Shown in pieces: positions 32,006 to 42,064 of a stretch of DNA of 64,000 bases. This DNA comes from Candidatus Poribacteria bacterium (lineage in GTDB: Bacteria; Poribacteria; WGA-4E; WGA-3G): assembly GCA_965205025.1 (NCBI GenBank), contig CBDBFU010000004.1, positions 89,453 through 153,452 on the forward strand, in the 5' to 3' direction. Under the pieces are notes generated by a model. That model was given only the letters and a program-made list of their open reading frames with translations. It did not search any database and had not been told where the DNA came from. The position numbers and the translations under genes were made by a program. The first letter of the stretch is position 1; the number at the start of each line of letters is the position of its first letter.

Positions 32006-34498
32006 GTGGAAAATGAAAACAAAATAGAACAAGAAGATGCTGAAGATATCAAAGAGGTTAAAGTTAAGAAAGACTCTGAAGATATTGAGGAAGCAGAAGA
32101 AGAAGAAGAAATAGTAGAATTACCTATTCTACCAGTTGATGATCTGGTTGTATTCCCTTCAATGCCACCGGTTCCACCTTTTCCACCACATCACGTCGCG
32201 CTTTCAGGTAAAACTGTTATGGATGCTGTTGATGATGCAATGCTAAATTGTAAACGAGTACTTTGTATCTTCCAAACAACATCTGGTCGAAGTTTAGACA
32301 CAGATCCCGACGTTGTGAAGGATATGACGATCGATGAATTAAGTCCCATTGGTAGTCAGATTAATATCCTACGATCGAAAAAAGATGATGACGATGTTCT
32401 CTTTCTCGCTTACGGACGTTCCAGAGTACAGATTGAGGAAATTCTTCACACTGAACCATTTCTAAAAGCACGGGTTCGTCTAATTCAAGATGAAGAAACT
32501 CCAGAATTATCTAAAGAAATATCCGAGTCATCCGATCAAGATGATATGGAGATTGAAGCACTTGTCCGCAGCATAGACGAAATGTTCCAACGGATTGTAC
32601 AACTTTCCTCACGCTATCAAGAGGAACATGGACTGATGACAAAAAATATTGATGAACCCGGTCAATTGGCGGATTATGTCGCGGCTGTCTTAGATATAAA
32701 ACCCCAAGAAAAACAACAGATCCTTGAAGCCATTGATATTCCTGAACGGTTAAACAAACTCACTGTTATCCTCGCTAAAGAAGTTGACCTCCATGAATTG
32801 GAAAGTAAAATTCAATCCAACGCACAGGCTGTTATCAATAAGGGACAACGCGAATATTTCCTACGTGAACAACTAAAGGCTATACAGACAGAACTCGGTG
32901 AAGCAGATGATATAACAGCTGATATTGATGAGATGCGGGAACAATTAGAATCCGCTGATCTACCTGAAAAAGCAGAAAAAGCGGCATTAAAAGAACTCAA
33001 TAGATTGTCAAAGATGCAATCCTTTTCTCCAGAATCAACTGTATCCCGCAATTATCTTGATTGGCTACTAAACCTGCCATGGTCGGTAAGCACAGAGGAT
33101 TCTATCGAACTAACGAAGGCTATGGAGATTCTTGACGAAGACCATTACAACCTGACAAAGGTAAAAGAAAGAATCGTTGATTATCTGGCAGTACAGTTAC
33201 TCAAATCCGATATGAAGGGACCTATCTTCTGTTTTGTAGGACCACCAGGTGTTGGAAAAACCTCTTTGGGTAAATCAATTGCTCGTGCAATCGGAAGAAA
33301 ATTCGTTCGGCTCTCTTTAGGTGGTATGCATGACGAAGCGGAAATACGCGGTCATCGTCGAACATATATAGGATCTATGCCGGGACGGATTGTCAAAGGC
33401 ATACGACAAGCAGAATCTAATAACCCTGTCTTCATGCTGGATGAGATTGATAAACTCGGTTCAGATTTTCGTGGGGATCCTGCAGCAGCACTCCTTGAAG
33501 TACTTGATCCTGAACAGAATAACGCATTTACTGATAACTATTTAGATGTCCCATTTGATCTATCCAACATCATGTTTATCACAACTGCTAATCAAGTTCA
33601 TACGATTCCACCTCCCCTACGCGATCGTATGGAAACAATTGATTTGCCAGGATATACCTCGAATGAGAAAAAACAGATAGCCAAGCAATATCTAATTCCT
33701 CGACAACTTACAGCTAATGGAATCACTGAAGAACAATTAGAGATTTCCGATGACGCTATTGAAAATGTTATTACAAAATACACCCGAGAAGCAGGAGTTC
33801 GAAACTTAGAAAGAGAACTCGGTACACTTTGTCGGAAATCCGCACGCAAAGTCGCTGAAGGAGAAATAGAACTGACTACAATCGAAGATGATGAGATTCC
33901 TACCTACCTTGGTCCACCAAAGTTTGAATCCGAGATTGCAGGACGGGAACCTGATGTAGGGGTGGCTACAGGACTTTCTGTTACACCTGCCGGTGGAGAA
34001 ATTCTCTTTGTGGAAGCAACAGCAACACAGAGTCAGACCGGAAAAAGTGATTTACGTATTACAGGTCAGTTAGGTGACGTAATGCAGGAATCCGCACAAG
34101 CTGCTCTCACTTATGTTAAATCACAATCATCTACACTCAAATTTGAGTCTGATGTTTTGCAGGATGATATACATATCCATGTTCCTGCTGGGGCAATACC
34201 AAAAGACGGTCCCTCCGCTGGTATAACAATCGCAACTGCGATCGCCTCAATAGCAACAAAACGTGGTGTAAATCCCGAAATCGCTATGACCGGTGAAATG
34301 ACATTAAGAGGTAGAGTTCTTCCTATCGGTGGCATAAAAGAGAAAATACTTGCTGCCAAACAGGCTGGTATTAAGACGGTTATTGTACCACAAGGTAATG
34401 AGAAAGATTTTGTTGAAATCCCAGAAGACATTCAAGACGGTCTCAACTTCCATTTTGTTGAACATGTTTCCGAAGTCTTTTCTGAGGTTTTTGTATGA
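32006..34498 (+). CDS. lon: ATP-dependent Lon protease
   Basis: AGGAGG then GTG start; LON N domain, [38 protein letters not shown]. Confidence 0.97.
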
Positions 34499-34692: not shown

Positions 34693-34868
34693 TACAACTT
34701 CTTGACAACATCTTAAAACAAGCACTCAATGCCGAAACACTTGACGACATCAATTTACAAGGTACAGACAATTAATATTCATATTGAATACCAGAGAGAT
34801 CACATTACGATACTTGCTATGTGATAAAACATCGATACGAATTCCCTTATTTGGGAAGGAGAGACGAT

Positions 34869-37130
34869 ATGAAAAGCGTTAGATGGAAAATCACTATACC
34901 CCTTCTGATAGTATGTGCAATCACTGCATATACATATATGGCTGCTCCAACAATTTGTTGGGGACAAGCAAATAGTGAAACCCAACCCGATGACGAAGTA
35001 ACCGAACGTACACCTCTTTTCCTCAAAGATATCGCACCTATTCTTGATAAGCAAGGATGTTCCGCAGGATTATGCCACGGAAAATTTGGCGGACAAGGTG
35101 GGTTAAATCTATCTCTTCTCACCCTCAATCCTGAATCGGATCATAAACCAATTGTATTCCATAATCGTGGTAGACGGATCAACCTAATTGAACCAGATCA
35201 GAGTCTACTATATCTTAAACCCACAGGACAAATTCCACATGCTGGTGGTATGAGATTTGAACCTGATTCTGATGAAGCAGATACAATTCTTCGTTGGATT
35301 TCTGCAGGAGCTCCCTTCTCACCTGATGAACCCCGTTTGGATAAACTTGAGATGCAACCAAATGAGGCTGTCTTTAATACTGTCGGAGAAACAAAACAGT
35401 TAAAAGTCATCGCACATTTTACAGATGGTTCGATAGAAGATGTAACTCACCATGCCGTCTTCGAATCTAAGGACGAACCTGTTGCAGCTGTCACAGAAAA
35501 TGGATTGGTAACGAGCGAACGGTGGGGTGGAACTGCTGTCTTAGCACGATACTTAGGTGTGGTCTCGTCTACATTCATTACTGTTCCACGAGAATCAGAT
35601 GGTGAACCTTATTCTGAATTGCAAAAGAATAACTTCATTGACGATTTTGTTGCAGCGAAACTTAATAAACTAAACGTCCGTCCCTCTGAACTCTCATCGG
35701 ATGAAGTATTTATTCGTAGAATTTATTTGGACACAGTTGGAAAATTACCTACCACTGAAGAAGTTCGTACATTTCTCAACGACGAAAATCCAGATAAACG
35801 ATCCGTACTGATTGATACCCTAATGAACACACCTGAATGGGTTGACCTCCGGACACTGAAAAAGGCAGATATGTTACGGGTGCATCCACGTAGACTTGGA
35901 AATGGACAATATGGAGATAGAGCTGCAACCCTATTCCATGAATACATAAGAGATTCAGTCGCAGAAGATAAACCCTACAACCAATTTGTCCATGAAATCA
36001 TTACTGCACGAGGGAGTACATATCAGCATGGACCTACAAACTATTATCGTATTGAACGCCAACCTTCAGGTAGAGCAGAAACCACAGCACAAGTCTTCTT
36101 AGGTATACGCCTAAGTTGTGCCAGATGTCATAAACACCCATTTGACGAATGGACAACTGATGATTATTGGAACTTTGCTGCATTCACTGGTAAAGTCAAT
36201 ACTCGTGGTGGTGAAATATATCAAGAGCTCGTTGTTTACCACAATCCTGGTGGACGGGTCATAAATCAATCTGTTCAAGGAAATAGAGGACAGGTAGCTG
36301 TACCAACATTCCTCGGAGGAAATACATTACCAGAGGCATATAGACCAGATGCTATCAACCATCTCGCGGACTGGATTATTGATGATTCAAATCCATATTT
36401 TGCAAAAGCTACGGTTAACCGTCTATGGAGCTACTATTTTGGTAGAGGTATCGTTGATCCTGTAGATGATATGCGTGCAACAACACCCGCAAGTGTTGAA
36501 GGACTATTAGAAGCGTTAGCAGAGGAATTTATACGAAGTGGATACGATACCAAACATATCATCAAACTAATTCTAAATTCACGCACCTATCAACTGTCAG
36601 CAGCACCGAATGAAACAAATGAATTGGATGATAGATTCTTCTCGCGTTTCATGCCAAGACCTCTCATGGCACAAGTTTTACTGGATGTGCTAAACGATGT
36701 TACTGGGACATCACAGAAATTTGGACGGTATCCTGACGGCACGCGAGCAATTGAAGTACCACTACCCGTCAGTTCACGTTTCCTTAATCTTTTTGGACGT
36801 TCTGACAGGGAATTCTTAGGCAACTTAGATCCATTACTTGAACCGACACTGACACAGGCATTACATATCATAAACTCTCAAAATATGAATGAGAAGTTGA
36901 ATGCACGGAAAGGTACAATCACACAACTTCTTAAACCGAAGACGGGAGAAAAGTTGCCACCAAAAGATCTCGTTAACGAATTGTATCTAATGACACTAAG
37001 TCGTTACCCGAGTGAAGTGGAACTTGATACAGCATTAACACATCTTACTGAAGAATCAACAAGGCGAGATGATACTGAAGACCTGCTTTGGGCATTAATA
37101 TCTTCTCGATCTTTCCTCTTCAATAGATAA
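34869..37130 (+). CDS. DUF1549/DUF1553 (PSCyt2/PSD1) exported protein with Ig-like domain and heme-type motifs
   Basis: GGAG then ATG 34869; signal peptide; CSAGLCHG, NNFIDDFV, FIRRIYLDTVG, LSCARCHKHPF, VNRLWSYYFGRGIVDPVDD. Confidence 0.88.
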   Translation: MKSVRWKITIPLLIVCAITAYTYMAAPTICWGQANSETQPDDEVTERTPLFLKDIAPILDKQGCSAGLCHGKFGGQGGLNLSLLTLNPESDHKPIVFHNRGRRINLIEPDQSLLYLKPTGQIPHAGGMRFEPDSDEADTILRWISAGAPFSPDEPRLDKLEMQPNEAVFNTVGETKQLKVIAHFTDGSIEDVTHHAVFESKDEPVAAVTENGLVTSERWGGTAVLARYLGVVSSTFITVPRESDGEPYSELQKNNFIDDFVAAKLNKLNVRPSELSSDEVFIRRIYLDTVGKLPTTEEVRTFLNDENPDKRSVLIDTLMNTPEWVDLRTLKKADMLRVHPRRLGNGQYGDRAATLFHEYIRDSVAEDKPYNQFVHEIITARGSTYQHGPTNYYRIERQPSGRAETTAQVFLGIRLSCARCHKHPFDEWTTDDYWNFAAFTGKVNTRGGEIYQELVVYHNPGGRVINQSVQGNRGQVAVPTFLGGNTLPEAYRPDAINHLADWIIDDSNPYFAKATVNRLWSYYFGRGIVDPVDDMRATTPASVEGLLEALAEEFIRSGYDTKHIIKLILNSRTYQLSAAPNETNELDDRFFSRFMPRPLMAQVLLDVLNDVTGTSQKFGRYPDGTRAIEVPLPVSSRFLNLFGRSDREFLGNLDPLLEPTLTQALHIINSQNMNEKLNARKGTITQLLKPKTGEKLPPKDLVNELYLMTLSRYPSEVELDTALTHLTEESTRRDDTEDLLWALISSRSFLFNR

Positions 37131-37149: not shown

Positions 37150-37188
37150 AAATAAGGCAGATGGATAAACTCCTATCTGCCTTATTTT
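37150..37188. terminator. bidirectional intrinsic terminator
   Basis: AAATAAGGCAGAT...ATCTGCCTTATTT stem between convergent genes, with A/T runs on both sides. Confidence 0.8.
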
Positions 37189-37268: not shown

Positions 37269-40200
37269 TTATTCAGGTAATGTATCAAATGCTCCTGATG
37301 AAACAATGTGATTAATTATTTCATTATTAATTGCATCCTCTCCAAAACGATCTTTGAAGTCAGAAATTGAAATAAATATACCGTTACGATTTCTTTCTGT
37401 AATAATCGAATCAACTATTTCTTCATTAAGTTCGTCAATAGTGAGTAGACCAACTCGGATACTCTTTCCGTCTATTGTGAAGTCTTTTGAACTATAGTTG
37501 ATATCTAATGGAAGTAGGTTGATTTCTACATCCAAGAAATCTTTGAGTCTTGAACATTCTGCTTTGTAAAGCTGAATTTTCTCTGAATCTGTGATCTCGC
37601 TATTCATTATTGCTGTCATAAATTCATGCGGATAATGAACTTTGAGATATGCCATCCTATAGGCTAACAATGAATAAGAAATAGCATGTGATCTGTTAAA
37701 AGCATACTCCCCAACAGTTTTCAGATAGTCAAATATTTCTTGAGCATCATCTCTTATCATACCATTATTCATTGAACCGCTTATGAAATCGGAATGTAAT
37801 TCATTTGTTGTAAATTCATCCCTTTTACCTATTGCATTCCGCAGTATTTCTGCCTTACCAAGAGAAAATCCCGCTACATCACATACAATCTGCATAACCT
37901 GTTCTTGATATAAACAGATACCGTATGTATTCTTCAAGACTGGTTCAAGGGATGTATGTATGTATTCTATCGGTTGATTGCCATGTTTACGTTCTATGAA
38001 CAATTGAAGATCCCCGTTATGAATAGGTGCAGGACGATACAGGGTAAGGATAGCAGAGAATTCTTCGAAGTTCTCAGGTCTTAACTCTGCTACGACCTGT
38101 TTAAAATCTTGTGATGTATCAAATTGAAATATACCGGCAAGTAATCCTTCACTAAATAGTGTATAAGTTGTTATATCATCAAGTGGGATATCTTCAAGAT
38201 TAATCTTGACTTTATGATTCTCTGAAATCATTTCCAAACAGTCTGCAGTTTCTGATAGACTCCGTACACCGAGTGAGTCAAATCTTACTAACCCTATATT
38301 TTTAATGTCTTTACTTCCAAACTGAGCTGCTATTTGCCCCTTTCGATCCTTAAAGAGAGGCACGTATCCAGTGAGTGGACCGTTTGCAATCGCGATTGCA
38401 GATGCATGGGTGAAGACATGATGTTTCATTCCTTCTATTGCTCTACTAATTTCGATTAATTCTTTATTCTCAGGTAGTTCTACAAGTCTTTGAAATTCTG
38501 TATCTCGTTTTATTATTTCATCAAGAGAAATACTTATACCTGGAACAAGATCAATCAACTCCTTAATTTTCTCATTTGAAATTTCCAGAACACGTCCAAC
38601 ATTTTTTATAGCATCTCTTGCCCTAAATGTTGTGAAGGCTGCGATTTTCCCTACAGAATCATGCCCGTATTTTCTTACGATATAATCTATCACATCGTCA
38701 AGAGCATTATCAGCAAAATCAATGTCAATATCAGGTGATTTCATCCTATCAAGGTTTAGGAATCTTTCGAATAAACACCCATAATCCATTGGATTAAAGT
38801 TAATTACACCCAATGCATATAAGGCAAGACTACTCGCTGCAGTACCGCGAGCTGACATTAGGTGTCCTTGTTTCTTCGCATAATTAACATAATCTGAAAC
38901 GATTAAGAAAATGTCAGCACTGCCTGTCTTTTCTATTATATCTAATTCGTAATCCATTCGTTTTCGAATTGGATCAGAGAGATGACTCCCGTATTTTTCA
39001 TATAACCCGTCATAACAAAGTTTCCTTAAGTAAGTTTTCTGTGTATATCCTTCAGGAACATCAAACTTGGGTATCACTCGATCATCGTAGTTAAGTCGTA
39101 AGTTACAACGTTCGGCTATCTCAAGTGTATTAATAATAGCTTCAGATGGATAATCCTTTAGGGCATCCTGCATTTCCTCAACATTCTTAAAGTAAAAATG
39201 GTTGTTGAATCGCACACGATCTGGATCGTTGACAGATTTCTTTCCTTTAATACAGAGTAGTATATCATGCATTCTATGGTCAGATTTTCTAAGATAGTGA
39301 CAGTCATTTGTTCCGACTATTGGAATATTATACTCTTTGGCAAATTCCACCATTTTAGGATATACTGCCATCTCTTGATCTATATAATGGTTCTGTATCT
39401 CAACATAGAGATGATCTTCACCCATAATATCCTTTAATGTCAATAGATTACGAATGGCTTCATCACTCTGATTTGAATAAATTAGTTTTGGTATTATTCC
39501 ATTAATACATCCTGTAAGAGCGATAATACCAGAGTGATATTCCCGTAACATTTCCATATTGATGTATGGTTTCCTATGAAATCCATGTGTATAACCCAAT
39601 GATGTCAATTCTAATAGATTATGATATCCTTCGTTATTCTCAGCCAGTAAAGTAAGTTCGTAAGATGTCCCTTCCCCCTTCACGACGTTTGATGAATCTT
39701 CTTTCTTAACATTTACCTCGCATCCAATAATTGGGTTAACACCTTCATCTCTTGCAGTTCTGTAAAACTCAATCGAACCGAACATATTCCCATGATCTGT
39801 CAATGCTAATGCAGGTGAACTATTCTCAACTGCCCAACGTACCATATCTGGAATTCTACATGCACCATCAAGTAGACTATATTCACTATGATTGTGTAGA
39901 TGAACAAATTCTTTATTTGTTGATTTAGTACTAAAATTACCATGTTTATTTGAAGGACTATCACTTCTTAATTCTTTTGAATAATCTACTTTATCTGACA
40001 TATTTTCCCCCTCTATAGGTTCCATCTGAAATTCTTTACGAAGAAGTTTCCTAATTTCACTTAGTCTTGATTTAACTGTTCCAATTGGAATATCCAATTC
40101 ATCTGAAATCTCTTTTATGCTGTACAGATCAAGATAATACATTATGGCAATAGAACGGACTTTATGCGGAAGATGTTTTACAGCCTCTATAGCATCAGAT

Positions 40201-40583
40201 CGGATTCTTGCTTCATGAAAACGTTGCTCAGCTTCTCTATCAATTAGTAATGCAATGTCATCGTAGTTCTGTAATACTTCTGTGTTCCTCTTAGTATTAG
40301 AGGCATAATATCTGTTGCATGCAGTATAGGCAATCCGTCGTAACCATCCACCAAAACTCTCTGTTTTCCGAAGTCCGATAATATTGTCCCAAACTGTAAA
40401 CCAGATATCCATTAGGATCTCTTCAGCATCACGTCGCTGCCTTGAGTTTTGAACAATTAAGTTCCAAATTCTGGGACTGTATCGTGACATTAATTCTGCG
40501 AATGCTGCTTCATTACGACTTTGGACATGGTGAACCAGTTCTTCATCTGTGTATGTGTTTGGTACAATAAAATTGTATTCCAT
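37269..40583 (-). CDS. dnaE: ECF sigma factor - DNA polymerase III alpha (DnaE) fusion, C-terminally shortened
   Basis: aa ~10-185: sigma regions 2 and 4 (AFAELMSRY, DAEE, FGGWLRRIA, LPHKVR, SIKEIS, IPIGTVKSRL). From aa ~225: PHP domain (FVHLHNHSEYSLLDG, LTDHGN, GCE, TNDCHY), palm (FERFLN...PDIDIDF; GLVRFDSLG), fingers (LYQEQVM, AFNRSHA). Ends at the HhH-region motif GAFD. GGGAGA SD before ATG. Confidence 0.93.
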   Translation of the reverse strand: MEYNFIVPNTYTDEELVHHVQSRNEAAFAELMSRYSPRIWNLIVQNSRQRRDAEEILMDIWFTVWDNIIGLRKTESFGGWLRRIAYTACNRYYASNTKRNTEVLQNYDDIALLIDREAEQRFHEARIRSDAIEAVKHLPHKVRSIAIMYYLDLYSIKEISDELDIPIGTVKSRLSEIRKLLRKEFQMEPIEGENMSDKVDYSKELRSDSPSNKHGNFSTKSTNKEFVHLHNHSEYSLLDGACRIPDMVRWAVENSSPALALTDHGNMFGSIEFYRTARDEGVNPIIGCEVNVKKEDSSNVVKGEGTSYELTLLAENNEGYHNLLELTSLGYTHGFHRKPYINMEMLREYHSGIIALTGCINGIIPKLIYSNQSDEAIRNLLTLKDIMGEDHLYVEIQNHYIDQEMAVYPKMVEFAKEYNIPIVGTNDCHYLRKSDHRMHDILLCIKGKKSVNDPDRVRFNNHFYFKNVEEMQDALKDYPSEAIINTLEIAERCNLRLNYDDRVIPKFDVPEGYTQKTYLRKLCYDGLYEKYGSHLSDPIRKRMDYELDIIEKTGSADIFLIVSDYVNYAKKQGHLMSARGTAASSLALYALGVINFNPMDYGCLFERFLNLDRMKSPDIDIDFADNALDDVIDYIVRKYGHDSVGKIAAFTTFRARDAIKNVGRVLEISNEKIKELIDLVPGISISLDEIIKRDTEFQRLVELPENKELIEISRAIEGMKHHVFTHASAIAIANGPLTGYVPLFKDRKGQIAAQFGSKDIKNIGLVRFDSLGVRSLSETADCLEMISENHKVKINLEDIPLDDITTYTLFSEGLLAGIFQFDTSQDFKQVVAELRPENFEEFSAILTLYRPAPIHNGDLQLFIERKHGNQPIEYIHTSLEPVLKNTYGICLYQEQVMQIVCDVAGFSLGKAEILRNAIGKRDEFTTNELHSDFISGSMNNGMIRDDAQEIFDYLKTVGEYAFNRSHAISYSLLAYRMAYLKVHYPHEFMTAIMNSEITDSEKIQLYKAECSRLKDFLDVEINLLPLDINYSSKDFTIDGKSIRVGLLTIDELNEEIVDSIITERNRNGIFISISDFKDRFGEDAINNEIINHIVSSGAFDTLPE

Positions 40584-40613
40584 GAATTATCTCCCAATTA
40601 GATTCAGTTATAA

Positions 40614-40641
40614 TGAGGACAACTTTTTGGATTTAGGTTTA
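40614..40641 (-). promoter_or_regulatory. possible ECF-type promoter upstream of the sigma-DnaE gene
   Basis: Minus strand TAAACC-N15-GTCCTCA, about 30 nt before the ATG; resembles the AAC...GTC pattern of ECF promoters. Confidence 0.3.
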
Positions 40642-40778
40642 AAAAAATGATGTATAAAGTGAAGTATAGTAGATATTTAATGATATTTCACGAAATATCT
40701 ATATTTCAACATTAACCTGAGTGATAAAATTCCCTGCAGAGTTGAAACTAAATAACCGTGGTACCTATAACCCATATC

Positions 40779-40808
40779 TTTACAGAATAATCTCAAATAT
40801 GATATAAT
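40779..40808 (+). promoter_or_regulatory. sigma70-like promoter for the rhamnose isomerase operon
   Basis: TTTACA-18 nt-TATAAT with an extended -10 TG. Confidence 0.55.
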
Positions 40809-40846
40809 TACCTGCAAATTATGCCTTACAAATCAGGAGAAACCTA

Positions 40847-42064
40847 ATGAGTAGCAGTCCTGCCTATAACCTGTTAGCTGAAACATTAGAGAAACAGGGA
40901 ATTCAGATAGAGACTATTAAGACATATCTCAAACAACAACATATAGAAACACCGTCATGGGGTTACGGGAATTCGGGGACACGATTCGGTGTATTTGAAC
41001 AACCCGGCGCAGCCAGAAACGCTGCGGAACGTCTCGAAGATGCTGCCACCGTTCACAAATTCACAGGTGTTTCACCTACTGTCGCTTTACACATACCGTG
41101 GGATAAAACAGACGATTGGGGTGCATTAAAACAGTATGCCGCGGATGTAGGTATCGGAATCGGAGCAATAAACCCAAATGTATTCCAAGATCAAGAATAC
41201 AAACTCGGTAGTGTATGCAATCCACATTCAGACATACGTCGTCTTGCAATTGATCATATGTTAGAATGTGTTGACATTATGGAAAAAACAGGTTCAGACT
41301 TACTGAGTCTTTGGTTTGCAGATGGCACAAACTTTCCCGGACAAGCAAACTTCAGAAAACGGAAACAGTGGATGTTTGATGCATTAAGTGAAGTATATGA
41401 TGCACTTCCTGATGCAACTCGTATGTTAATCGAGTATAAGTTTTTTGAACCTGCATTCTATCACACCGATTTGGCTGATTGGGGTACCGCTTACCTGATG
41501 GCAACAAAACTCGGTTCAAAAGCACAAGTCTTGGTGGATTTGGGTCATCACCCTCAAGGTGTCAATATCGAATTTATCGTTGCATATCTTATTGATGAAG
41601 GTAAACTTGGAGGATTCCACTTCAATTGCCGAAAATACGCTGATGATGATCTTACTGTTGGCTCCATCAACCCGCAAGAACTCTTTTTAATCTACACTGA
41701 ACTCGTTGCTGCTGAACTTGATCCTGATACTGAAACCGATATCGCATACATGATTGATCAAAGTCATAATTTGAAACCTAAAGTCGAAGCAAGCATTCAA
41801 TCAGTATGTAATCTGCAAAAGGCTTACGCAAAGGCATTGTTAGTTGATCGTGAAGCATTAGCGGAAGCACAAGATGCTGCAGATATTGTGGAAGCTGAGG
41901 GTATTCTGCAACGGGCAAACGAAACTGATGTGAACCCTTTACTTGAACAGGTTCGTTTGGAAATGGGACGAGATCCACACCCACTAACTGCATACCGAAA
42001 AAGTGGTTACTACGAGAAAATTAGTAAAACCCGTGTCGGTGGTGAAAGTCAAGGGTGGGCATAA
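40847..42064 (+). CDS. rhaI: L-rhamnose isomerase (RhaI type)
   Basis: [58 protein letters not shown]. Confidence 0.92.

Follow-up and report, generated by a model that had tools for sequence, protein, structure and literature searches.

A sigma factor–DNA polymerase III fusion in Candidatus Poribacteria is an FtsZ-deleted member of a sigma–FtsZ–DnaE family

The stretch of DNA analyzed here, called the window below, comprises 64,000 nucleotides (nt) from the genome of a Candidatus Poribacteria bacterium (GenBank assembly GCA_965205025.1, contig CBDBFU010000004.1, positions 89,453 to 153,452). On its reverse strand, 37269..40583 is occupied by one open reading frame (ORF) that starts with ATG, contains no internal stop and encodes a protein of 1104 amino acids (aa), designated P0001, in which an extracytoplasmic function (ECF) sigma factor is followed by a linker and a C-terminally truncated DnaE, which is DNA polymerase III's alpha subunit. 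An earlier note made from the letters of the window had singled out this stop-free sigma–DnaE frame, and the ORF listing, Pfam and NCBIfam all agree with it. The Shine-Dalgarno sequence that the note assigned to the gene is also present, as GGGAG at 40591-40595 on the reverse strand, 7 nt upstream of the ATG.

The sigma module occupies aa 1-190 (40014..40583, reverse strand) according to Pfam and the NCBIfam model TIGR02937 (sigma70-ECF), which scores 65.8 against a cut-off of 42.9 over aa 27-184. Sigma70_r4_2 is found at aa 132-181 (40041-40190, reverse strand; 37 against a cut-off of 25.7), and Sigma70_r2 at aa 31-98 (40290-40493, reverse strand) with a Pfam score of 23.8 bits, slightly below the cut-off of 24. 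The note had regarded regions 2 and 4 as complete, which is supported by TIGR02937 and Sigma70_r4_2 and, by a marginal shortfall, not by Sigma70_r2. Residues 10-193 match solved structures of ECF sigma factors, and the module, with regions 2 and 4 only in about 190 aa, belongs to the ECF (group 4) class of the sigma-70 family. A linker of about 35 aa between sigma and the DnaE core, delimited by linker comparison as aa 186-222 (39918..40028, reverse strand), begins with EFxxEPIxGxxM, a start that is common to this protein and its closest paralogues, in which a sigma module carries WD40 repeats.

The remainder of the protein is a DnaE core, the Pfam domains of which all lie on the reverse strand: the PHP domain at aa 228-399 (39387..39902) with eight of nine metal-site residues, the polymerase palm and thumb (DNA_pol3_alpha, aa 518-772) followed by the fingers (aa 781-941; together 37761..39032), and the helix-hairpin-helix (HhH) domain HHH_6 at aa 1021-1102 (37278..37523), where the protein terminates. 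The DnaE superfamily model TIGR00594 scores 912 against a cut-off of 434. The match stops at model position 882 of 1151 (from 2) and at 884 of 1146 (from 3), and the NCBIfam equivalog cut-offs for DnaE are missed (947.9 against 1260; 934 against 1002). In comparison with solved structures, this part aligns to residues 4-891 of the Escherichia coli alpha subunit and to Taq alpha up to residue 946. PHP through HhH is present, and the clamp-binding motif, the OB fold and the tau-binding C-terminal domain are missing; the clamp-type motif QMNLF of the canonical paralogue lies about 35 aa beyond the point where the window protein ends. To the PHP, palm, thumb and fingers that the note had recognized, a C-terminal truncation is thus to be added.

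Is the junction between the two halves genuine? A contig of 11,144 nt from run X1, possibly the source sample, covers the whole stretch, and one of 7,622 nt from another sample of that study (run X2) covers 38190-40900 including the junction, both with 0 differences. The junction is also crossed by contigs of two other studies (X3 and X5, several per cent divergent), in which 1011 nt replace 39956-39964 of the window and encode FtsZ in frame. Proteins of 1104 aa with the same architecture as the window protein are known from two further assemblies, P0002 (91% identity) and P0006 (83%), the latter annotated as DNA polymerase III subunit alpha of Candidatus Poribacteria.

Relatives of the fusion protein were collected as the best 120 protein clusters of a search, and all named ones are poribacterial. 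Among those listed, 116 of the 120 contain sigma, Tubulin/FtsZ and PHP domains, and all but one of these contain the polymerase domains too; Tubulin (PF00091) is nearly always paired with FtsZ_C. These triple fusions are 1342-1454 aa long; the listed clusters mostly span 1342-1442 aa, with one of 1743 aa. The latter (P0097) and a frame of 1744 aa at G137:C1:2601294-2602073 exceed the ordinary triple fusion by about 320 aa. In the closest genome, G004 of the same genus, a 1454-aa frame carries a 343-aa FtsZ module between sigma and DnaE; it is 92% identical to the window protein in both halves, and the same neighbors flank the gene. Ten other genomes of the genus also carry the FtsZ insert, nine of them in frames of 1412-1453 aa and one (G019) as a match split by stops. 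The possibility that the insert of about 340 aa in the relatives is an intein was considered and discarded, since what is inserted there is an FtsZ domain (Tubulin plus FtsZ_C). Since relatives have FtsZ at the same position, the window gene is an FtsZ-deleted member of a sigma–FtsZ–DnaE family. In public annotation, proteins of this family appear as DNA polymerase III subunit alpha, as cell division protein FtsZ or as a sigma-70 family factor.

A probe that reaches from the last part of FtsZ across the linker into the first part of PHP was run against 112 genomes of the poribacterial family concerned, and the FtsZ–DnaE junction was found in one frame in 62 of them: 18 of 40 in genus g1, the only genome of g12, 43 of 65 in g13 and none of the six of g9-g11. 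Three further genomes of the family carry remnants of it. In a survey of 176 genomes of the phylum, additional FtsZ copies proved typical of the fusion-bearing family alone: its 111 genomes, with few exceptions, gave two to four FtsZ matches, and the 64 genomes from the other ten families, with three exceptions, gave a single one.

The window protein has no FtsZ/tubulin GTPase domain with its GGGTGTG box by Pfam; the module has been removed by an in-frame deletion, the scar of which lies at 39956-39964 after R206. Five of 121 family proteins are without FtsZ, and the limits of the missing part in them fall into no fewer than three different sets. The three 1104-aa proteins (P0001, P0002 and P0006) have identical deletion boundaries, and yet each of them is paired with a sister that carries FtsZ, in the tree of DnaE as well as in that of sigma, and the residues just past the junction in each resemble those of its own FtsZ-bearing sister. 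No direct repeats are present at the boundaries, just a GA|A microhomology. This implies either three independent occurrences of the identical deletion or the spread of a single deletion allele through recombination in which the flanks were very short.

The origin of the fusion can be followed in the same genomes. The window genome has a separate, full-length canonical dnaE (1180 aa, 56% identical to the fused module) and a canonical ftsZ (a 442-aa frame ending in WDIPTFLRVQ). A FastTree phylogeny of 142 DnaE cores, with a DnaE2-like gene as the root, places the 121 fused modules in a single clade (support 0.906) within the DnaE1 clade of the family (1.0), separate from the DnaE1 of three sister families. 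The branching order of the fused clade, the canonical copies and a third paralogue clade is poorly supported (0.091). This third, free-standing DnaE, present in part of the genus (L054-L059, in G012, G002, G007, G023 and G010), is 992-1185 aa long, forms a clade of its own and has a C-terminus eroded to varying degree. Genes for TatD and a permease lie directly upstream of the fusion in 11 of 12 loci from three genera, and 10 of the 12 have, ahead of these, genes for an SDR and an MR_MLE enzyme. In the window genome and in G004 the fusion gene lies outside this ancestral locus; the ancestral cluster of the window genome is on contig C20 with another gene in place of the fusion. Genes for putative endonucleases of the Uma2 family adjoin the ancestral locus in two genomes (L044 34-726; L045 10337-11161). 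These data show a single origin of the fusion within one family of Candidatus Poribacteria, in which duplicated copies of the chromosomal dnaE and ftsZ were used, followed by vertical inheritance at a fixed locus and by relocation in the lineage of the window genome; the loss of FtsZ by in-frame deletion came later, in the version found in the window.

Two other origins were considered and rejected. A context in the division and cell wall (dcw) cluster does not apply, as none of the conserved upstream genes (MR_MLE enzyme, SDR, TatD and permease) is for cell division. A phage or mobile origin is contradicted by the fixed chromosomal locus and by the relatives on viral contigs (best 80 of 206), in which the DnaE part is matched alone and at no more than 41% identity. 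The GC content of the window gene is 0.354 against 0.385 for the genome and 0.402 for the canonical dnaE; fused orthologues are lower in GC than the canonical dnaE in every genome tested, and low GC, being common to all of them, is therefore no argument for gene transfer. DnaE2-like polymerase genes are found in none of the 112 genomes of the fusion-bearing family and in 9 of 11, 6 of 29 and 0 of 7 genomes of the sister families.

Several of the checks that the earlier note had attached to its claim have thereby come out on the side of a genuine fusion: contigs of two samples cross the junction without differences, a separate full-length dnaE is present in the same genome, the fused modules form one clade within the DnaE1 clade of the family, homologous fusions occur in relatives, and selection, as described below, is purifying rather than neutral. 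Of the outcomes that the note would have taken as a refutation, none was observed. The note had also asked whether the sigma module is joined to other essential proteins, and FtsZ is such a partner, both in the relatives and in a second gene of the same genome. Its overall interpretation holds in that the fusion is genuine and conserved, and has to be modified in that the window gene is a derived, FtsZ-less member of a larger family, most members of which keep FtsZ between sigma and DnaE.

Ratios of non-synonymous to synonymous substitution rates (dN/dS) were calculated by the method of Nei and Gojobori for nine genome pairs, in six of which the canonical DnaE was included. For the sigma module, eight orthologue pairs give a ratio of 0.03-0.11, and the little-diverged pair of the window genome (G000) and G004 gives 0.34; the ratio is 0.18-0.26 for the FtsZ module, 0.12-0.19 for the fused DnaE and 0.02-0.10 for the canonical DnaE. 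All three modules are under purifying selection, and sigma is shown to be the most constrained module and the only constant one. Non-synonymous change in the fused DnaE is 2-13 times that of the canonical copy. Synonymous divergence (dS) is uneven between modules of one pair (in G014-G013, 0.12 for sigma, 0.10 for FtsZ and 0.39 for DnaE), and this suggests that parts of the gene have recombined. A two- to four-fold spread of dS among the sigma, FtsZ and DnaE modules is seen within one genome pair for L011/L017 and L012/L015.

The active-site residues can be compared across the same 121 proteins. The catalytic Asp triad (D618, D620 and D769) is intact in the window protein and present as DDD in 112 of the 121; the nine without a full triad comprise eight substitutions and one gap, and include P0006, which has DND. 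In the fingers, YQEQ is kept in 119 (two gaps) and His966 in 118 (three gaps). A PHP domain is taken as 'active' when it carries the nine-residue motif HHDHEH[C/H]DH (PMC12926913). The motif HHDHEHCDH is intact in 107 of the 121 proteins; the window protein, with HHDHEECDH, departs from it by one residue, Glu309, which stands at the place of His107 of Mycobacterium tuberculosis DnaE1. This His-to-Glu change occurs in six of the 121 proteins, all from the window lineage, and P0005 has Asp instead. The FtsZ G-box GGGTGT is kept in 109 of the 116 proteins with an FtsZ module, and a C-terminal peptide of the DIPxFL type was found after the FtsZ core in none of 112 fused proteins. Both passengers thus retain their catalytic or assembly cores and are without the parts for docking: in DnaE, the tau-binding end, OB fold and clamp motif that connect it to the replisome, and in FtsZ, the DIPxFLR-type peptide that connects it to the divisome.

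The sigma module has many relatives in its own genome. A hidden Markov model of it finds 68 ECF sigma ORFs, of which 15 are of 175-230 aa and 53 are extended. The extensions of 47 of the 53 form one similarity cluster, with WD40 repeats in the three members scanned; of the others, one has PD40 repeats, three are of unknown type, one is the N-terminal half of FtsZ and one is the DnaE of the window. A transmembrane-like segment about 35 aa past region 4 is present in 41 of the 53 and was found neither in the window protein nor in the sigma–FtsZ(N) protein and the three closest sigma–WD40 paralogues. Many extended sigma genes stand in tandem arrays on contig C2 (examples of extended sigma loci are C2:344230-347211, C2:380375-384247, which is L065, and C2:271963-276108, which is L064). 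The window sigma module is 46-49% identical to three sigma–WD40 paralogues, and it derives from this genome-wide expansion of C-terminally extended sigma factors.

The sigma–FtsZ(N) protein is a second fusion in the same genome, in which an ECF sigma is joined to the N-terminal GTPase half of FtsZ in 401 aa (L006 1474-2679; G000 C5:24084-25289); about 45 clusters among the matches listed have this form. In the sigma-module tree, FtsZ-linked sigmas cluster together (0.808), and sigma–FtsZ forms without DnaE, some of which keep a remnant of PHP, are nested at several points among the triple fusions. Sigma is constant, and FtsZ and DnaE have each been lost repeatedly.

Upstream of the window gene lies an ECF-type promoter-like element, TTTTTAAACC-N17-CCTCATTATAAC (40608..40645, reverse strand), with AAACC at 40636-40640 and CCTC at 40615-40618 (reverse strand) at a spacing of N17. 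All 13 upstream regions compared, which belong to orthologues from three genera, contain AAACC-N17-CCTC; both relocated genes are among them, so the element moved along with the gene on relocation. It also precedes the sigma–FtsZ(N) gene and the three closest sigma–WD40 genes. Another motif, ATGCAACC-N17-CGTC (GCAACC-N15-18-CGTC), precedes 22 of the 53 extended sigma genes, whereas in the full set of 3923 ORFs it precedes 51; the window element has the same 17-nt geometry as GCAACC-N17-CGTC of the paralogues, in other letters. ECF factors usually have a cognate promoter in front of their own gene, with a -35 of the AAC type and a short -10 spaced by about 17 nt. The window sigma may recognize AAACC-N17-CCTC promoters, its own included.

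As for the surroundings of the gene, genes for a Lon protease and a DUF1549/DUF1553 (PSCyt2/PSD1) protein, at 32006-34498 and 34821-37130, lie just downstream and convergent with the fusion, and the same pair flanks the fusion in G004. The neighbors in the window are these two and genes for a xylose-isomerase-like protein, a GFO oxidoreductase and RpiA; no anti-sigma gene was found among the genes adjoining the fusion. A hairpin at 37150-37187, assigned to neither strand and possibly a two-way terminator between the two convergent genes, has a stem of 13 bp or longer followed by UUAUUUGG (folding, z -2.87). The downstream terminator of the earlier note is therefore plausible but weak: hairpin and trailing UUAUUUGG speak for it, and a consensus terminator scan found none. 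The structure predicted for the whole protein from a family alignment of 88 rows was of low quality (mean predicted local distance difference test, pLDDT, 58.2; predicted template modeling score, pTM, 0.33) and is uninformative on domain packing. Complex prediction for sigma (aa 1-190) and DnaE (aa 223-1030), run without controls, gave 0.00 (mark 0.32), and the ESM Atlas gave no usable match.

What might such a protein do? The earlier note had put forward a sensor, a decoy and a tethered polymerase, each of which may apply; on the present evidence, sigma is rather the output, with the extension as an input or tether. In our preferred reading, which is tentative and a little short of an even chance, the product is an ECF sigma factor that regulates its own gene, and its C-terminal extension serves to tether or gate it via the cell-cycle machinery. 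The output would be transcription from AAACC-N17-CCTC promoters, that of its own gene among them, and the extension, as the input, would keep or place sigma on a large cellular structure: the DnaE core would bind DNA with primer ends, and the FtsZ core would bind FtsZ polymers. The access of sigma to RNA polymerase would then track the state of replication or division, and release could come about by a conformational change or by cleavage of the linker. There is a parallel in the paralogues, most of which may hold sigma at the membrane through the transmembrane segment that precedes their WD40 propellers.

Several observations weigh against this reading. The fusion gene is absent from 49 of the 112 genomes of the family and is therefore no core regulator of the cell cycle. 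Promoter scans did not reveal a regulon: the strict one gave six matches, three of them at sigma genes, and a looser one gave 26 that make no coherent set. That the extension contacts or gates sigma, and that the protein binds RNA polymerase, DNA or FtsZ, is something we infer. Preservation of the polymerase triad (112 of 121) and of the PHP site (107 of 121) exceeds what a mere tether would seem to need, and such strict conservation points to a catalytic role. Finally, the window lineage bears signs of relaxed constraint: a branch length of 0.286 (P0001-P0007), the PHP His-to-Glu change, a degenerate FtsZ G-box (GGETGT) in sisters, the loss of FtsZ, the relocation, a GC of 0.354 against 0.402, and, between the window genome and G004, dN/dS values of 0.19 for DnaE and 0.34 for sigma that are the highest of the pairs tested.

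These last signs also fit a decaying passenger in the window lineage, where sigma alone would matter and DnaE would be kept for folding or stability or be on its way out. The long branch, the Glu (in P0005, Asp) in the PHP site, the FtsZ G-box that is degenerate in sisters, the FtsZ deletion in the window gene, the move to another locus and the elevated dN/dS all point in this direction, as does the lost catalytic Asp of P0006. Against decay, three lineages with identities as low as 83% have kept the 1104-aa frame open, a dN/dS of 0.19 over 880 codons is still far below 1, and the window protein itself has its full triad; we consider this explanation unlikely.

A different use of the passengers would be as an integrated decoy or guard, with the FtsZ and DnaE copies serving as bait for inhibitors made by phages or toxin systems and the binding of an inhibitor freeing sigma for a defense programme. 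Phage proteins are indeed known to target FtsZ and parts of the replisome. Each passenger is paralogous to an essential protein that is still present in its genuine form, and both are without the parts needed in the replisome or divisome; the patchy spread over 62 of 112 genomes, the repeated loss of modules, the recombination indicated by mosaic dS, the 2-13-fold non-synonymous change relative to canonical DnaE and the vast expansion of the sigma family with protein-binding propellers would all suit a bait. However, no defense genes adjoin the fusion in either type of locus, the search for a regulon came up empty, and the active-site residues are kept more strictly than a bait would seem to need. 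The relatives on viral contigs (best 80 of 206, DnaE only, at no more than 41%) are uninformative on inhibitors, and we know of no bacterial precedent for an integrated decoy. On balance such a role is improbable.

The strict conservation of the active sites would be accounted for if the polymerase is tethered to RNA polymerase, with sigma as an address label and the Pol III core as the effector. A non-processive core without clamp or tau contacts would be brought to AAACC-N17-CCTC promoters or to RNA polymerase and would extend transcripts or 3' ends, leading to transcript-primed local DNA synthesis, repair or mutagenesis. The crystallized E. coli alpha core 1-917 is polymerase-active, and the fused module corresponds to about that extent (residues 4-891). 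The intact triad of the window protein and of most relatives, the PHP site, the YQEQ and His966 of the fingers and a dN/dS of 0.12-0.19 for the DnaE module are in keeping with activity, and no DnaE2-type polymerase was found in the 112 family genomes, while sister families do have it (9 of 11 and 6 of 29). Against this proposal stand the repeated loss of DnaE where sigma–FtsZ persists, the nine proteins, P0006 (DND) among them, that lack a full triad, and the finding that the motif-bearing promoters found are those of sigma genes only; it also gives the FtsZ module no role. We rate its chances as small. A more specific version, which we hold to be quite improbable, is a promoter-addressed DNA polymerase: the sigma part would sit in the holoenzyme at AAACC-N17-CCTC, the Pol III core would prime on the nascent transcript or a nearby 3' end, the resulting site-specific DNA synthesis would amount to a local start of replication, repair or targeted mutagenesis, and FtsZ in the relatives would add GTP-dependent clustering.

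An assembly chimera or frameshift artefact, which might be suspected in a genome of 33 contigs with an estimated contamination of 4.3%, is refuted as far as assemblies can tell and has a practically negligible probability, given that contigs of two samples cover the junction with 0 differences, that contigs of two other studies carry the FtsZ-bearing junction in frame and that the fusion is present in 62 genomes, a large number of which are single closed contigs.

Transcription, replication and division are in the charge of sigma factors, the replicase and FtsZ, and here copies of all three (two in the window genome) are united in one polypeptide that is maintained under selection in dozens of uncultured sponge-symbiont species. 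Should the extension gate sigma, this would be a new direct wiring of gene expression to the cell cycle or to DNA status, and the idea of the one-component ECF factor would widen from small sensor domains to whole enzymes. Should the polymerase be the effector, the protein would represent natural promoter-targeted DNA synthesis, and should the passengers be bait, a bacterial integrated decoy. ECF sigma factors and Pol III cores are both tractable, so these readings can be tested by ordinary expression and in vitro assays.

How does the fusion compare with known systems? Full-text literature searches returned no description of a sigma–FtsZ or sigma–DnaE fusion, in agreement with the earlier note, which knew of no described sigma-replicase fusion. 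FtsZ, tubulin, 'polymerase III' and 'DNA polymerase' do not occur in the main texts of a re-classification of ECF sigma factors (PMC7826278) and a review of non-canonical ones (PMC8999054); nor are 'sigma', 'FtsZ' and 'Poribacteria' found in the main text of PMC12926913, a survey of the DNA polymerases of bacteria from 2026.

Among polymerases, the fused module is most like the DnaE1 of E. coli, Thermus aquaticus and M. tuberculosis (2HNH, 2HPI and 5LEW/7PU7), with which it shares PHP, palm, thumb, fingers, HhH and the Asp triad. Unlike DnaE1, the window protein has an N-terminal sigma, lacks the clamp motif, the OB fold and the tau-binding domain, has a changed PHP ligand and misses the equivalog cut-offs, and its non-synonymous change is 2-13 times that of the canonical copy. 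As a second, non-replicative C-family polymerase beside the replicase it recalls DnaE2/ImuC; in contrast to DnaE2/ImuC, it scores 524 against a cut-off of 939 with NF004225 and falls in the DnaE1 clade, and the poribacterial DnaE2-like genes, which served as outgroup of the tree, are only about 32% identical.

Two signaling systems offer partial likenesses. Plant immune receptors of the nucleotide-binding leucine-rich repeat (NLR) type contain integrated-decoy domains, that is, a copy of the target of a pathogen fused to a signaling protein; these are eukaryotic and have a different output, and there is no evidence of a pathogen ligand for the poribacterial fusion. In Bacillus subtilis, the link to sigma F runs through separate proteins and phosphorylation of an anti-anti-sigma factor. 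Activation of sigma F is coupled there to the division septum via the FtsZ-binding phosphatase SpoIIE (PMC4714977), and a sigma activity tied to the FtsZ machinery would be the common element. Unlike the SpoIIE system, FtsZ (in the relatives) and DnaE are joined covalently to sigma.

The closest parallel is with extended ECF sigma factors, as fused C-terminal regulatory domains have been described as a concept (PMC7826278, PMC8999054, PMC5766207). Known examples are ECF41/sigmaJ with SnoaL_2, ECF42 with TPR, ECF44/238 with the Cys-rich domain of CorE, ECF57 with WD40-like repeats, and ECF01-Gob; a likeness to ECF57 lies in the WD40 extensions of the paralogues. Like these factors, the window protein consists of a sigma2–sigma4 core followed by an extension, has no anti-sigma neighbor and is preceded by an ECF-type promoter-like element. 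Unlike them, it carries an extension of 900 aa (1250 aa in relatives) in place of a small ligand- or protein-binding domain, and that extension is made of paralogues of two housekeeping machines whose active sites look intact.

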